A stretch of 4,133 bases of DNA from a virus (taxonomy: Duplodnaviria > Heunggongvirae > Uroviricota > Caudoviricetes). Location of the stretch: the IMG/VR virus record IMGVR_UViG_2606217110_000002; one strand, given 5' to 3'. Shown one piece after another: positions 1 through 4,133 of the stretch (within the stretch, counting starts at the first letter, position 1; each line of letters opens with the position of its first letter). The notes under the pieces are model-generated. The model was given only the letters and a program-made list of their open reading frames with translations, made no database searches and was not told the DNA's origin. A program made the position numbers and the translations under genes.

Positions 1-155
1 TGCACCAGAAAATTAAGGCTGCGCAGGACCTGAAATGGGCCAATGAAGCCAGGGCTAAGCAGGCTGAAAATCTGTCCGCTCTGGAGCAGGATATCACCAA
101 TCTGGAAAAAGCAGCGGCATTAAGCATTGCCAGAATGATTACATACCCACGTTAA
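1..155 (+). CDS. 3' end of an upstream ORF, 5' truncated by the window edge; hypothetical protein, function unknown
   Basis: Frame 3 is open from the window start to TAA at 153-155, giving HQKIKAAQDLKWANEARAKQAENLSALEQDITNLEKAAALSIARMITYPR. It is on the same strand as, and 22 nt upstream of, the next well-supported ORF, which suggests an operon. The K/A/Q/E-rich heptad-like composition suggests a helical or coiled-coil tail. No family was recognised. Confidence 0.5.
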   Translation, partial: HQKIKAAQDLKWANEARAKQAENLSALEQDITNLEKAAALSIARMITYPR

Positions 156-177
156 TGGTTAACCAACGAGGCTAATA

Positions 178-585
178 ATGGAATTTAAAGATTTACCAAA
201 AGAAATCCAGATAATTGCTGCAACGACACTCGGTGATAGTCTGGTGAAAATTGACCCGGCATACACCAAAAAAGAAACCATCGATAATATGGTTCGTAAT
301 GTGCGCAATGCTTTTTCAGGGCTATATGGTTCTGATAATCAAAAACAGGAAAACGATATTGATGAACGGGTAATTTCTGTTTGCCTGAATGGTCATGTTA
401 TTTCAGCAATCAGAACAGAAACGGCAACTGTTTTTGATTATCTCTGCATGATTCAGAGTCTTGCTGATGTTCTGTTGAAATCAAAAGATTTAGAAAACGA
501 TGCAAATTTACAGGGGCGCACAATAGCACATCCATATGCACATACTTTAGACTCTGTGGATATCAAAGATCCCACAAATCTTTAA
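178..585 (+). CDS. hypothetical protein, 135 aa, AT-rich accessory gene of unknown function
   Basis: Complete ORF from ATG 178 to TAA 583-585. A Shine-Dalgarno GAGG at 168-171 lies 6 nt upstream of the ATG. A rough by-eye count over the first 60 nt gives about 35% GC, below the downstream exonuclease gene. No catalytic motif or known family was recognised. Confidence 0.8.
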   Translation: MEFKDLPKEIQIIAATTLGDSLVKIDPAYTKKETIDNMVRNVRNAFSGLYGSDNQKQENDIDERVISVCLNGHVISAIRTETATVFDYLCMIQSLADVLLKSKDLENDANLQGRTIAHPYAHTLDSVDIKDPTNL

Positions 586-796
586 TGAAATAGTTAACGC
601 GAATTGTACTTGCTCTTTCAGTTGCTTTCAGAATACGCGTTGAAACTGCTGGCGGTAATTTAGTATTCCATTTATTAAAATCATGCCCGGGAAAGTACTC
701 TTCGAAAATACTTTTAACTGCAGACTCGCCTATTGAAATGCTGCTTACCATGCGATTTTGATAAAGGCATTTAGCAATAAGAGTTGATTTTAACAT
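563..796 (-). CDS. possible small hypothetical protein, 77 aa, convergent with and overlapping the 3' end of ORF 178-585
   Basis: It is the only open frame across the AT-rich stretch 586-796, where every + strand frame has stops. The start is ATG (reverse complement of 794-796) and the stop is TGA (reverse complement of 563-565). Only a weak purine-rich stretch (AGAAGAG) precedes the ATG, so the start and the reality of the gene are uncertain. It overlaps ORF 178-585 by 23 bp tail-to-tail. Confidence 0.35.
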   Translation of the reverse strand: MLKSTLIAKCLYQNRMVSSISIGESAVKSIFEEYFPGHDFNKWNTKLPPAVSTRILKATERASTIRVNYFIKDLWDL

Positions 797-831
797 TCAC
801 TCTTCTGAGGGTTGGTAATTAAGGAGTTCTC

Positions 832-870
832 CACGGGTGAGGTGGAGTGCGTGCGCCGGACACGGGTGAG
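832..870 (+). repeat. 10-bp direct repeat CACGGGTGAG, two copies (832-841 and 861-870)
   Basis: Read directly from the sequence; the copies start 29 bp apart. The second copy forms most of the loop of the hairpin GCCGGA(855-860)/TCCGGC(873-878). Only two copies are present, so this is not an array. Confidence 0.85.
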
Positions 871-1136
871 CATCCGGCACTGACAGTTTACTGAAAGGAT
901 ATATCCCTGAAAAGTCAGGGCATAACACGAAAGCGTACGGCGAAGGCCTTCACCTATGAGGCTTGTCGTTAAATTTAATTCGACCGTACGCTTCCGGTTG
1001 TGGCAATCCGCGAAATGGCGCGGCGGTAAGTATGGCAGGGGGACTATTCTCCCTCCCCTGTGGAGCACCGGGTTGTCAGGTTGACCATACGCCTGAGTGA
1101 CAACCCCGCTGCAACAACCCATGTTGATTACCTTTT

Positions 1137-1180
1137 GGCGGGTATCCGTTTTGTTTTTCCCATGATACCCGCCCCTTTTA
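1137..1180 (+). terminator. putative intrinsic (Rho-independent) terminator, + strand
   Basis: A perfect 10-bp GC-rich stem, GGCGGGTATC (1137-1146) with GATACCCGCC (1164-1173), has a 17-nt loop and is followed by CCTTTTAAA. The T-tract is only 4 nt and the loop is large, so termination would be partial at best. On the - strand the stem is followed by AAAAGG, so it is not a terminator in that orientation. Confidence 0.45.
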
Positions 1181-1183
1181 AAG

Positions 1184-1831: not shown

Positions 1832-4133
1832 ATGAGTAAAGTCTTTATTTGCGCCGCCATTCCGGACGAACAGGCAATAAAGGAAGAAGGTGCAGTCGCT
1901 GTAGCCACTGCCATTGAAGCCGGCGACGAACGTCGCGCCCGTGCCAAATTTACCTGGCAATTCCTGGAGCAATATCCGGCTGCTCAGGACTGCGCTTATA
2001 AATTTCTTGTTTGCGAGGATAAACCCGGTATACCCCGCCCTGCCCTCGATTCCTGGGATGCTGAATATATGCAGGAAAACCGCTGGGATGAGGAGTCAGC
2101 TTCCTTTGTCCCGGTTGAGACTGAATCAGATCCGATGAACGTCACTTTTGACAAGCTGGCCCCTGAAGTGCAGAACGCTGTCATGGTTAAGTTCGACACA
2201 TGTGAAAACATCACCGTTGATATGGTGATTAGTGCACAGGAACTGTTGCAGGAAGACATGGCAACATTCGACGGACATATCGTTGAAGCGTTGATGAAAA
2301 TGCCAGAAGTTAACGCCATGTATCCGGAACTTAAGTTGCATGCCATCGGGTGGGTTAAGCATAAATGTAAGCCTGGAGCTAAATGGCCCGAAATTCAGGC
2401 AGAGATGCGCATCTGGAAAAAACGTCGCGAAGGTGAACGCAAGGAAACCGGAAAATACACGTCTGCTGTTGATCTCGCCCGCGCCAGAGCCAATCAACAG
2501 AACACTGAAAGTTCAACAGGAAAAATCAGCCCGGTCATTGCTGCCACTCATCGCGAATACAAGCAGACATGGAAAACACTGGATGACGAACTGGCCTACG
2601 CTCTCTGGCCTGGTGATGTGGATGCCGGAAACATTGACGGCAGCATCCATCGCTGGGCAAAAAATGAAGTTATCGACAACGACCGCGAAGACTGGAAGCG
2701 TATCTCGGCATCAATGCGCAAACAGCCTGATGCCCTTCGCTACGACCGCCAGACTATTTTTGGCCTTGTCCGTGAACGTCCGATCGACATTCACAAAGAT
2801 CCTGTGGCACTGAACAAATACATTACTGAATACCTGACTACAAAGGGCGTGTTTGAAGATGAAGGAAGAAATCAGAGCGCAACTGATACTCTCTCGTCGC
2901 CAGTACCAGAAACTGATGCAGTGGAAACGGCAATTCCGGACAACGAAAAAACCGAATGCAAAGTGGAAGTCGAACCATCTGTAGAGCGTGAAGGGCCGTT
3001 CTACTTCCTCTTCACCGACAAGGATGGCGAAAAATACGGTCGCGCAAACAAACTTTCTGGTCTGGATAAGGCGCTGGCTGCCGGGGCTACTGAAATCACG
3101 AAAGAAGAATATTTCGCCCGCAAAAACAGTACATACTCAGGTTCACAACAAAATACTGGTGCATCTGACACGACCGCACAGCCAGAACCGGTAAAAGTTA
3201 CCGCTGACGAAGTAAACAAAATTATGCAGGCAGCCAATATCAGCCAGCCTGATGCCGATAAGTTGCTTGCTGCATCACGTGGTGAATTTATTGAAGGGAT
3301 TAGCGACCCGAATGATCCGAAATGGGTTAAGGGGATCCAGACCCGCGATACTGTGAACCAGAACCAGCAAGAAACGGAACAGAACGACCAGAAAGCGGAA
3401 CAAAACAGCCCAAATACGCAACAAAACGAGCCAGAAACGAAACAACCTGAACCAGTAGTGCAACAGGAACCGGAAAAAATCTGCACCGCCTGCGGTCAGA
3501 GCGGTGGTGGCAACTGCCCTGATTGTGGTGCGGTGATGGGCGACGCAACATACCAGGAAACATTCGATGACAAGAACCAGGTTGAAGTTCAGGAAGACGA
3601 TTCGGAGAAAATGGAAGGCGCTGAACATCCACACAAGGAGAATGCTGGCAGCGCTCAGGATCACGCCAGCGATAGTGAAACTGGCGAGACGGCAGATCCC
3701 TTAATTACGGTGAACGGTCATCGCGTTATCACATCCACCAGCAGGACGTGTGACCATCTAATGATCGACCTTGAAACCATGGGAAAAAATCCCGATGCCC
3801 CGATCATCTCAATAGGTGCAATATTTTTCGATCCACAAACCGGAGATATGGGACCGGAATTTAGTAAGACTATCGATCTGGAAACTGCTGGCGGAGTCAT
3901 TGATCGGGACACCATTAAATGGTGGCTTAAGCAATCACGCGAAGCGCAATCTGCCATTATGACCGATGAAATCCCGTTAGATGATGCACTGTTACAATTG
4001 CGGGAATTTATCGACGAAAACTCCGGCGAATTTTTTGTTCAGGTCTGGGGAAATGGAGCCAACTTCGACAACACGATTTTGCGCCGTTCATACGAACGGC
4101 AGGGGATCCCCTGCCCGTGGCGTTACTACAACG
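1832..4133 (+). CDS. large prophage exonuclease, RecE-like / exodeoxyribonuclease VIII-type, with C-terminal DEDD-type 3'-5' exonuclease domain; 5' complete, 3' truncated by the window end
   Basis: ATG at 1832 follows an in-frame TAA (1823-1825) and a GAGG at 1818-1821. Frame 2 translates without a stop to the window end, at least 767 codons; I translated the N-terminal ~117 codons and the zinc-ribbon/DEDD regions codon by codon and the rest less rigorously. It is missing from the supplied track only because it has no stop in the window. The protein starts MSKVFICAAIPDEQAIKEEGAVAVATAIEAGDERRARAKF and contains DKLLAASRGEFIEGISDPNDPKWVKGIQTRD, which I recall (unverified) as conserved in RecE-family proteins. 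All alternative-frame and antisense ORFs in this span are taken as spurious. Confidence 0.9.
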   Translation, partial: MSKVFICAAIPDEQAIKEEGAVAVATAIEAGDERRARAKFTWQFLEQYPAAQDCAYKFLVCEDKPGIPRPALDSWDAEYMQENRWDEESASFVPVETESDPMNVTFDKLAPEVQNAVMVKFDTCENITVDMVISAQELLQEDMATFDGHIVEALMKMPEVNAMYPELKLHAIGWVKHKCKPGAKWPEIQAEMRIWKKRREGERKETGKYTSAVDLARARANQQNTESSTGKISPVIAATHREYKQTWKTLDDELAYALWPGDVDAGNIDGSIHRWAKNEVIDNDREDWKRISASMRKQPDALRYDRQTIFGLVRERPIDIHKDPVALNKYITEYLTTKGVFEDEGRNQSATDTLSSPVPETDAVETAIPDNEKTECKVEVEPSVEREGPFYFLFTDKDGEKYGRANKLSGLDKALAAGATEITKEEYFARKNSTYSGSQQNTGASDTTAQPEPVKVTADEVNKIMQAANISQPDADKLLAASRGEFIEGISDPNDPKWVKGIQTRDTVNQNQQETEQNDQKAEQNSPNTQQNEPETKQPEPVVQQEPEKICTACGQSGGGNCPDCGAVMGDATYQETFDDKNQVEVQEDDSEKMEGAEHPHKENAGSAQDHASDSETGETADPLITVNGHRVITSTSRTCDHLMIDLETMGKNPDAPIISIGAIFFDPQTGDMGPEFSKTIDLETAGGVIDRDTIKWWLKQSREAQSAIMTDEIPLDDALLQLREFIDENSGEFFVQVWGNGANFDNTILRRSYERQGIPCPWRYYN
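3350..3478 (+). other. low-complexity Q/N/E/T-rich linker inside the exonuclease CDS
   Basis: Translation TVNQNQQETEQNDQKAEQNSPNTQQNEPETKQPEPVVQQEPEK. The DNA is T-poor with reiterated gaacca/gaaacg-type units. It probably forms a flexible interdomain linker. Confidence 0.7.
3482..3526 (+). other. CxxC-x7-CxxC motif (putative C4 zinc ribbon) inside the exonuclease CDS
   Basis: Cys codons at 3482, 3491, 3515 and 3524 give ICTACGQSGGGNCPDCGAV. The spacing is typical of a small zinc-ribbon knuckle. Confidence 0.55.
3761..4133 (+). other. DEDD(h)-type 3'-5' exonuclease domain, N-terminal part (continues beyond the window)
   Basis: The motif MIDLETMGKNPDAPIISIGAIFFDP has an acidic D-x-E pair (D 3767-3769, E 3773-3775) at the start of a hydrophobic strand, the classic Exo I motif of DnaQ-like exonucleases. 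The downstream WGNGANFDNTIL resembles the Exo II region. Confidence 0.75.

Follow-up and report, generated by a model that had tools for sequence, protein, structure and literature searches.

A convergent gene pair inserted in a dicBF-type early operon

We examined a convergent, overlapping pair of small genes carried by a 4,133-nucleotide stretch of DNA from a virus of the Caudoviricetes (IMG/VR record IMGVR_UViG_2606217110_000002), referred to at its full length as the window. Gene A lies on the minus strand at 563-796 and encodes 77 amino acids (aa), and gene B lies on the plus strand at 178-585 and encodes 135 aa; both open reading frames (ORFs) start with ATG. An earlier note, made from the sequence alone, had described a convergent pair with a 23-bp overlap, and direct reading returned exactly these coordinates, with 563-585 as the shared stretch. 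The strong ribosome-binding site that it ascribed to the plus-strand ORF was likewise found, as GAGG 8 nt before the ATG at position 178, and the AT-richness that it reported is evident from a GC content of 36.8% for positions 176-809, compared with 48.0% for 1-175 and 51.9% for 810-1362. The features on which our analysis draws are the following:

178-585, plus strand: gene B, 135 aa, PHROG 1363, co-oriented with the early operon (ORF, PHROG match, and coding sequence called by the NCBI Prokaryotic Genome Annotation Pipeline, PGAP)
178-357, plus strand: N-terminal add-on of B, two helices, common to other cassette types at the same site (41-49% identity to the N-termini of the plus-strand genes of cassettes 042 and M7424; AlphaFold2)
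358-582, plus strand: conserved B domain of ~75 aa, beta-hairpin plus helices (alignment with partner proteins of 77-79 aa; AlphaFold2 predicted local distance difference test, pLDDT, of 73-90)
563-796, minus strand: gene A, 77 aa, PHROG 10348, antisense to the early operon (ORF, PHROG match, homologues, AlphaFold2, and PGAP coding sequence)
563-585, no strand assigned: convergent 3' overlap of 23 bp (direct reading; each stop codon lies within the Ile-Lys codons of the other gene)
797-810, minus strand: ribosome-binding region of A, CCTCAGAAGAGTGA-ATG, weakened relative to the CAGGAGGGTGAA-ATG of other E. coli cassettes (alignment of five E. coli loci)
810-960, minus strand: nearly invariant upstream flank, kept in K-12 (alignment; precedes the minus-strand gene of every cassette type that has one)
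166-169, plus strand: Shine-Dalgarno GAGG of gene B (direct sequence reading)
176-809, no strand assigned: AT-rich insert relative to K-12 that carries the gene pair (blastn against K-12; GC content)
1-155, plus strand: 3' part of ydfC, which lies upstream in the dicBF-type early operon (93% identity to K-12 ydfC; so annotated in an identical E. coli record)

Comparison by blastn with E. coli K-12 revealed that window positions 1-175 and 810-1553 match the K-12 ydfC-dicF-dicB region collinearly and are contiguous there, the junction of the insert falling at adjacent positions (239/240 of the aligned K-12 stretch). The insert is a clean 634 bp in a Qin-like prophage, situated after ydfC where the dicF leader begins. 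A prophage of E. coli E200086 matches the window with 100% identity, and its gene order is a Cro/CI-type regulator, a DicA-like helix-turn-helix (HTH) repressor, ydfA, ydfB, ydfC, the A and B ORFs and dicB, with a DUF1482 (YdfD-like) gene, a large exonuclease gene, xis and int after dicB. The setting is a lambdoid (Qin-like) early operon of the dicBF type, with the insert between ydfC and the dicF region. At least 80% of window positions 100-900 is carried by 643 of 5426 complete E. coli genomes, most of the others matching the flanks only, and the prophages that bear the module include Stx2a phage-associated prophages of O157. Both proteins are annotated by PGAP as "hypothetical proteins" (WP_000394516.1 for B and WP_000920491.1 for A).

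Both reading frames are conserved protein-coding genes

Synonymous-biased substitution, proposed in the earlier note as a sign of a real minus-strand gene, was found among homologues of A, with a cross-genus pN/pS (ratio of nonsynonymous to synonymous differences per site) of 0.33 (pN 0.23; pS 0.75, i.e. saturated). The protein matches PHROG 10348 over its full length (E 1.1e-47, positions 1-77 of 77), and homologues of 77 aa with 55-72% identity are present in Klebsiella, Raoultella, Dickeya, Xenorhabdus, Yersinia, Serratia, Morganella and Salmonella. An alignment of 23 sequences contains 27 invariant positions, with length differences at the termini only, and from these 23 sequences AlphaFold2 predicted, at a pLDDT of 96.7, a compact five-helix domain for which no known fold relative was found. 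The model and sequence together describe a soluble, globular protein (grand average of hydropathy, GRAVY, -0.13). An exhaustive profile search of a 1.84-billion-protein library resolved the A family into 158 clusters at 50% identity, nearly all of 74-80 aa, and all 80 distant members scanned also match PHROG 10348; at 90% identity, 33 clusters were counted for A. The exact A protein occurs on at least 1000 contigs, every time named "hypothetical".

These data bear directly on the possibility that only one ORF of the pair is a gene, and that the minus-strand ORF is a chance frame in AT-rich DNA. Such a reading could appeal to the window, where the minus-strand frame has no good promoter and a weak ribosome-binding site, and to its disruption in 3 of 104 loci (the census described below). 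However, the frame keeps its length and its identity across genera despite saturated synonymous sites, it belongs to a large family with a confidently predicted fold, and in other loci it is preceded by a strong Shine-Dalgarno sequence and a conserved promoter. We regard the chance-frame explanation as effectively refuted by these conservation data, and its probability as vanishingly small.

A broken minus-strand ORF beside an intact plus-strand ORF, which the earlier note had named as grounds for accepting a single gene, does occur in these three loci, through two distinct lesions. One is a 13-bp tandem duplication (tcgaagagtactt) that inactivates A and leaves B intact in two near-identical E. 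coli-type contigs (L101 3001-3244 and L103 1420-1663), the product being represented by a cluster of truncated 55-aa proteins (P0033); the other consists of frameshifts in Photorhabdus. Since the lesions are recent and lie in an otherwise conserved A, they provide no evidence that the frame is non-coding, and the minus-strand gene is not overturned by them. No case of a broken B with an intact A was identified in the census. A further ATG ORF of 110 aa, on the minus strand at 790-1122, overlaps the start of A and spans the GC-rich dicF leader; it is probably spurious and is without annotation in the identical RefSeq record.

Gene B matches PHROG 1363 (E 3.3e-42, positions 1-130 of 139), a family labelled, like that of A, "unknown function", and its cross-genus pN/pS is 0.53 with saturated pS (pN 0.40 and pS 0.75 for the conserved domain). 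Closer inspection indicated a composite protein, in which an N-terminal add-on precedes a conserved domain of ~75 aa. PHROGs 9419, 2151, 6937 and 33007 match only residues 1-55/64 of B, a region for which AlphaFold2 predicted helices at residues 8-22 and 32-47 (pLDDT about 70). Conversely, partner proteins of 77-79 aa in Dickeya, Serratia, Klebsiella and Yersinia align with residues ~62-135, which contain the motifs VNG, T..A...DY and LE.[DE]AN.xG[RK]T..H, and a profile search with this domain retrieved 95 clusters across Enterobacterales. The minimal form of B is thus 75-80 aa, with N-termini such as MSKSGR, MKKQGR or MEKQMNGRR that lead straight into the beta-hairpin, and longer forms gain N-terminal additions, for example the 60-aa two-helix domain of the window or a long helical region in Yersinia-type loci. 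The B domain carries, fused at its N-terminus, a ClpX-type C4 zinc finger (PF06689) or else a CxxC...CxxC segment in Citrobacter and related prophages (proteins P0153-P0155, P0158 and P0159; locus L016 4001-4420 and L094 3212-3730). A hybrid E. coli protein (P0067, 135 aa) combines a YdfC-like N-terminal half with a B-domain C-terminal half, which indicates recombination between ydfC and gene B. Judged by conservation on both strands, A and B are both real genes.

A and B form an old, linked module

A profile scan of genome contigs with a narrow A alignment gave only four loci; the census used here comprises all fetched loci, with 104 A genes, and includes finds initiated from B as well as distant family members. 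Across Escherichia, Klebsiella, Serratia, Yersinia, Dickeya, Erwinia, Proteus and other genera, an ORF with the B domain was found on the strand opposite A for 100 of these 104 genes, and the overlap of the 100 pairs measures 23 bp in 94 cases, 26 bp in four, 24 bp in one and 51 bp in one. For example, every A of the Dickeya, Serratia, Yersinia and Klebsiella prophages faces a convergent gene of 77, 79 or 191 aa on the other strand, mostly with the 23-bp overlap. Retrieval initiated from B in Leclercia, Erwinia and Citrobacter again placed A on the other strand, including a Citrobacter locus (L016) with a 51-bp overlap in which the cognate A had remained uncalled as a gene. Two distant A-family members likewise possess B-like partners, and the co-occurrence holds down to 30-40% B identity in loci reached from either gene. 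Among 35 non-redundant pairs, pairwise identities of A and B are correlated (r = 0.84), with B evolving faster (mean identity 0.50, compared with 0.68 for A). Together, these comparisons indicate that A and B constitute an old, obligately linked module, next to the repressor in most phages, and not a chance juxtaposition of two morons.

Within E. coli we compared the window, the O157 PPompW prophage, phage Evi and an O166 strain. Gene A is near-identical across the four loci (synonymous divergence, dS, 0.02-0.04; nonsynonymous divergence, dN, 0-0.005), and B is more diverged across the same loci (dS 0.13-0.39, dN 0.08-0.19), the exception being the Evi/O166 pair, with a dS of 0.011. This mismatch implies that recombination between A and B occurs, yet the pairing persists. 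It also provides a footing for viewing A and B as functionally independent accessory genes, with an overlap that is frozen and serves at most a transcriptional role (interference, or insulation of the early operon), since the disparity in dS is that of independent recombination. Two further observations agree with independence: one cassette type at the same site (L109, described below) has a plus-strand gene only, and the charges of the two proteins are not complementary across families. Charge complementarity had been considered as evidence of binding, A of the window having an isoelectric point of 9.5 and B of 4.8, and was dropped as unconserved. Near-universal co-occurrence from either starting gene, the exchange of both halves together between cassette types, and the difficulty of keeping such linkage without a functional tie in the face of demonstrated recombination nevertheless make independence hardly likely.

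Exchange of gene pairs at the ydfC/dicF site

At the E. coli site between ydfC and dicF we identified at least four other cassette types, three of which pair a plus-strand gene with a convergent minus-strand gene. In cassette 042 the two genes encode 133 and 92 aa and overlap by 41 bp, in M7424 they encode 106 and 91 aa and overlap by 23 bp, and in L108 they encode 208 and 69 aa and abut; L109 comprises a plus-strand gene of 124 aa without a minus-strand gene. (The coordinates of these other cassettes are L011 1577-2216, L012 1579-2152, L108 2013-2849 and L109 2501-2875.) Their plus-strand genes share only the N-terminal ~55-60 aa with B, and their C-termini and minus-strand genes bear no relation to B and A. 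Between 042 and M7424, the minus-strand proteins are distantly homologous (28% identity, E 3e-5). On the other side of the exchanged region, the minus-strand flank is nearly invariant up to the start codon in the window, PPompW, 042 and M7424, inclusive of a strong Shine-Dalgarno sequence (CAGGAGGGTGAA-ATG), and K-12 retains most of this flank.

These comparisons indicate that the unit of exchange is the C-terminal part of the plus-strand gene together with the whole minus-strand gene, set between conserved platforms on both strands. From this joint exchange we argue that the two products are cognate. The separately acquired cassette proposed in the earlier note is therefore upheld with an amendment: the insert is AT-rich, absent from K-12 and polymorphic among E. 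coli genomes, but the swapped unit is not the whole pair. Locus L108 additionally carries, at 821-1488 between the repressor gene and ydfC, a HigB-toxin/HTH-antitoxin pair that replaces ydfA and ydfB, a further sign that the early operon is an insertion hotspot.

Transcriptional layout of the module

In four of four non-E. coli loci, the gap between cI and B was found to contain two copies of a palindrome, further copies of which lie between cI and cro. Strong sigma-70 promoters overlap these operators (TTGACA-16-CATAAT, 11 of 12, in L019; TTGACC-18-TATTAT, 10 of 12, in L008), and an intrinsic terminator lies between cI and the B-side promoter in two of three loci scanned. On the basis of these palindromes and overlapping promoters, B is placed as the first gene of a repressor-controlled pL operon in non-E. 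coli phages, i.e. at the position of lambda N, with A antisense within it. Gene A in turn has a candidate promoter of its own in these phages, as an extended -10 element (TGnTAT[C/T][T/C]T) is situated 30-34 nt before its ATG in 10 of 12 diverse non-E. coli loci.

In the window, a standard promoter scan detected no minus-strand promoter in the flank at 810-960, and a relaxed scan gave a sole, weak candidate for A (TTTTCA-17-TAAACT, 913-885). The invariant flank also contains a perfect dyad, CTCCAC-N7-GTGGAG at 829-847, which is shared by K-12 and all E. coli cassette types; a CCAC...GTGG dyad occupies the equivalent place, between the -35 and -10 of the A promoter, in Serratia, Yersinia and Klebsiella. 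This dyad may represent an operator or an RNA hairpin.

Promoter and terminator scans of the window and loci yielded no convincing terminator after A or B, and RNAalifold, applied to 14 loci in search of a bidirectional terminator or conserved hairpin at the overlap, predicted no pairs. With no hairpin or terminator between the genes, each transcript should run antisense into the other gene, in line with what the earlier note had anticipated. Its description of the pair as a moron is more equivocal. Base composition and presence/absence polymorphism agree with the term, but the strict sense, which entails an own promoter plus terminator, applies only in part, as the extended -10 is found in the non-E. 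coli loci and is lacking in the window, and no terminator was found after either gene.

The location of the module beside the repressor and pL in most phages, with B at the lambda N position, invites an explanation as a lysis-lysogeny device. Here B would be a lytic-commitment factor (a non-proteolytic antirepressor or an N-like protein) buffered by A, or alternatively A would be a small antirepressor. Precedent exists in TF-smORF modules, in which small proteins encoded next to repressors inactivate cI and an HTH factor is divergently paired (PMC10432266). We consider such a device distinctly unlikely, however, given that the module is dispensable (it is absent from K-12 Qin and replaced by other cassettes), and that A is 57-72% identical beside S24-type cI and 135-aa DicA-type repressors, whereas antirepressors are normally repressor-specific. 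In addition, B has no arginine-rich N-terminus, neither protein contains an HTH, and no divergent transcription factor is present. As specific assignments, a lambda N-type antiterminator was rejected for B on its N-terminus and on the dispensability of the module, which K-12 lacks, and a TF-smORF antirepressor module was rejected because A and B lack an HTH and are convergent, not divergent.

Searches for function and comparison with known systems

The earlier note had recognised no motif in either protein, and database searches led to the same result: Pfam, NCBIfam and PADLOC searches were empty for both and PDB sequence searches yielded nothing, with no match at E <= 1 to A or B among the defence models of PADLOC-DB 2.0. 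Profile searches also returned no hit to a housekeeping phage function, the outcome which that note had considered incompatible with an accessory role. A Pfam scan of 80 distant A-family members gave only two marginal, unrelated DUF matches, and PDB profile searches with 23 and with 80 A sequences gave nothing credible (best E 0.035, dynein light chain). A literature search found no paper on the A or B protein.

Several known classes were weighed and rejected. Type II toxin-antitoxin systems are co-directional, autoregulated operons with a DNA-binding antitoxin and a known toxin fold, none of which is seen here. In type I systems such as txpA/RatA and bsrG/SR4 the genes are convergent with overlapping 3' ends, and the systems often reside in prophages. 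Their toxins are short hydrophobic membrane peptides with an RNA antitoxin, whereas A is predicted to be a soluble, globular five-helix domain and its antisense partner B is a conserved protein gene. Membership of the SieB family was discounted as well, as A and B have no Pfam or PHROG match beyond the two families of unknown function.

The closest relatives in concept are systems of exclusion with self-immunity. In P22, the exclusion gene sieB, the escape protein Esc and the antisense RNA sas act together (PMC12197685), and SieB-Esc-sas of P22 and lambda resembles A/B as an accessory function in the early-left (pL) region of a lambdoid prophage, with a lysogen exclusion protein, a phage escape protein and an antisense transcript that couples both (PMC12197685). 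SieB has no sequence or fold relation to A or B, neither of which has a SieB Pfam match. It is a larger membrane protein, in contrast to the soluble 77-aa helical domain of A. Esc is translated in frame from within sieB, whereas B has a gene of its own on the opposite strand, and the antisense partner in A/B is protein-coding.

The stretch immediately after cI is a documented hotspot for defence genes that are expressed in the lysogen and come with cognate self-immunity, BstA/aba among them (PMC8585504). BstA/aba and A/B share this mosaic niche directly downstream of a prophage repressor, and would share the concept of a lysogen-expressed defence with an element exempting the carrier phage (PMC8585504). 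They are not homologous. BstA, a large protein of two domains that is presumably transcribed together with cI, has a DNA element of 63 bp as its antidote; in the A/B loci the cI-adjacent gene is under pL, with a terminator after cI in two loci, and the candidate antidote is a protein.

Face-to-face units with overlapping 3' or 5' ends that govern lysogenic versus lytic states through transcriptional interference and RNA pairing are exemplified by lambda oop/cII, P22 sar/ant and the pR/pL promoters of phage 186. These involve at least one short non-coding RNA or a promoter overlap, whereas A and B are both conserved protein genes with a fixed coding overlap of 23 bp. Pore-forming colicin operons place the immunity gene on the opposite strand, pointing towards the repressor-controlled toxin gene. 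Colicin and polymorphic toxin loci resemble the ydfC/dicF cassettes in having a conserved N-terminal part and a C-terminal domain that is exchanged along with a small cognate gene. They differ in that A/B has no secretion or delivery domain, known toxin fold or membrane-spanning immunity protein, and is located in a phage early operon, not on a bacteriocin plasmid. By its features the module belongs to no known system, exclusion with self-immunity and toxin/immunity cassettes being nearest in concept. As a functional class, prophage defence with cognate self-immunity would be consistent with the genomic niche and promoter layout only.

A possible effector and antidote with opposed expression

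We propose that A is a prophage exclusion or abortive-defence effector and B its immediate-early antidote. Taken as a whole chain this is plausible, if short of probable. It builds on what comparison of the loci establishes, namely that both genes are real, that their linkage and overlap are conserved, that promoters and operators are laid out as described, and that cassettes are swapped as pairs. Since B lies in a repressor-controlled early-left operon, it would stay off in the lysogen and yield one of the earliest proteins upon induction or infection; in the window it sits after ydfABC in a dicBF-type operon, and in most phages it is the first gene after pL/oL. Gene A, being antisense with a promoter of its own inside the early unit, would be a gene of the lysogenic state. 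Transcription of the early operon would shut off A through collision and RNA pairing, transcription of A would dampen leaky early transcription, and convergent transcription would in this way render the lysogenic and early states mutually exclusive. The two proteins would be a cognate, antagonistic pair, in which A, expressed from the prophage, most likely serves superinfection exclusion or abortive defence, and B lets the lytic cycle of the phage itself, or a phage with the same module, escape A. Assigning the effector role to A and the antidote role to B is suggested by the repressor-adjacent niche, by the SieB/Esc/sas precedent, and by the loss of A with B intact but never the reverse.

A number of observations weigh against this proposal. 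Up to seven B-domain alleles, only 77-91% identical to each other, occur together with one and the same A allele in E. coli, which is unlike the prediction of tight cognate co-evolution. In the window the Shine-Dalgarno sequence of A is weakened (CAGAAGAGTGA-ATG) and the extended -10 is missing, and A may therefore be poorly expressed in this prophage. The asymmetry of lesions rests on three loci, of which only two are independent, and one very distant A-like gene occurs alone in a chromosomal setting, between chemotaxis and glycosidase genes, with no B. The single A allele beside many B alleles and the weakened expression signals of A in the window fit no cognate-pair model neatly.

The polarity of the pair could also be reversed, as in pore-forming colicin operons, such that B is an immediate-early effector, toxic or directed at the host in the manner of Kil, DicB or YdfD from operons of this kind, and A a constitutively made immunity or anti-leak protein that guards the lysogen against leaky early transcription and that induction would swamp and silence so that B acts. 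This arrangement is suggested by the cassettes, in which a variable C-terminus of the plus-strand gene is swapped with a small opposite-strand gene behind a conserved N-terminal domain, a pattern that by analogy mirrors polymorphic toxin/immunity loci and colicin immunity genes. The faster evolution of B, its acquisition of varied N-terminal domains, and a surrounding operon rich in toxic early genes (PMC5069750) point the same way. On the other hand, A is inactivated beside an intact B in three loci, which would be harmful if A were the antidote, although with B kept repressed in the lysogen the cost may be small. Many B alleles also share one A allele, one distant A-like gene lacks a B partner altogether, and B has no toxin-like fold. 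Overall, we consider reversed polarity unlikely.

Whichever of its proteins acts, the pair may belong to something wider. A/B and the other ydfC/dicF cassettes could represent an undescribed class of polymorphic effector/antidote pairs inside phage early operons, with A and B as founders of two new folds and of a new mechanism of exclusion or addiction spread across Enterobacterales prophages, a generalisation that we put forward as doubtful. In such a class, the partner built on the conserved N-terminal platform would appear immediately on induction, and lysogens would express the other one from the opposite strand. Cassettes would trade cognate pairs as whole units, and the overlap of converging transcription would impose one state or the other.

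Neighbouring elements in the window

Downstream of the insert, window positions 1121-1182 are collinear with K-12 dicF and hold a diverged DicF-like element, which shares TTTGGCGG(G)TATC.GTTTT with DicF and has a hairpin of its own (GGCGGGTATC...GATACCCGCC) followed by a T-run. An Rfam search detected neither DicF at E <= 1 nor any family within the insert. Its sole match, below threshold, was to the Salmonella small RNA family STnc100 at 1186-1340, in the part of the leader that separates the DicF-like element from dicB (28.2 bits, with 47 as the gathering score; E 0.002). Further downstream, the ORF of the large exonuclease (1832-4133) is cut off by the window end; in the identical record it spans 2481 bp. 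It encodes a low-complexity linker rich in Q, E, N and K at ~3340-3480, followed by a CxxC...CxxC zinc-ribbon-like motif at ~3484-3530, before the 3'-5' exonuclease domain.

Implications for prophage biology

Repressor-adjacent prophage regions are a proven source of defence and counter-defence systems, such as Rex, BstA and SieB. The A/B module is common, occurring in about one in eight complete E. coli genomes, and is conserved across many genera, while both of its proteins are unannotated and without fold relatives. Located just upstream of dicF and dicB, its antisense transcription could also affect these cell-division inhibitors. The fixed coding overlap, with one partner directly under pL and the other apparently on a promoter of its own, makes the module readily tractable to experiment. 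If A and B are an effector/antidote system, the module would add a new protein family to prophage-mediated exclusion and provide a clear case of two protein genes cross-regulated by convergent transcription, and the ydfC/dicF site would constitute a small, easily screened reservoir of further pairs.

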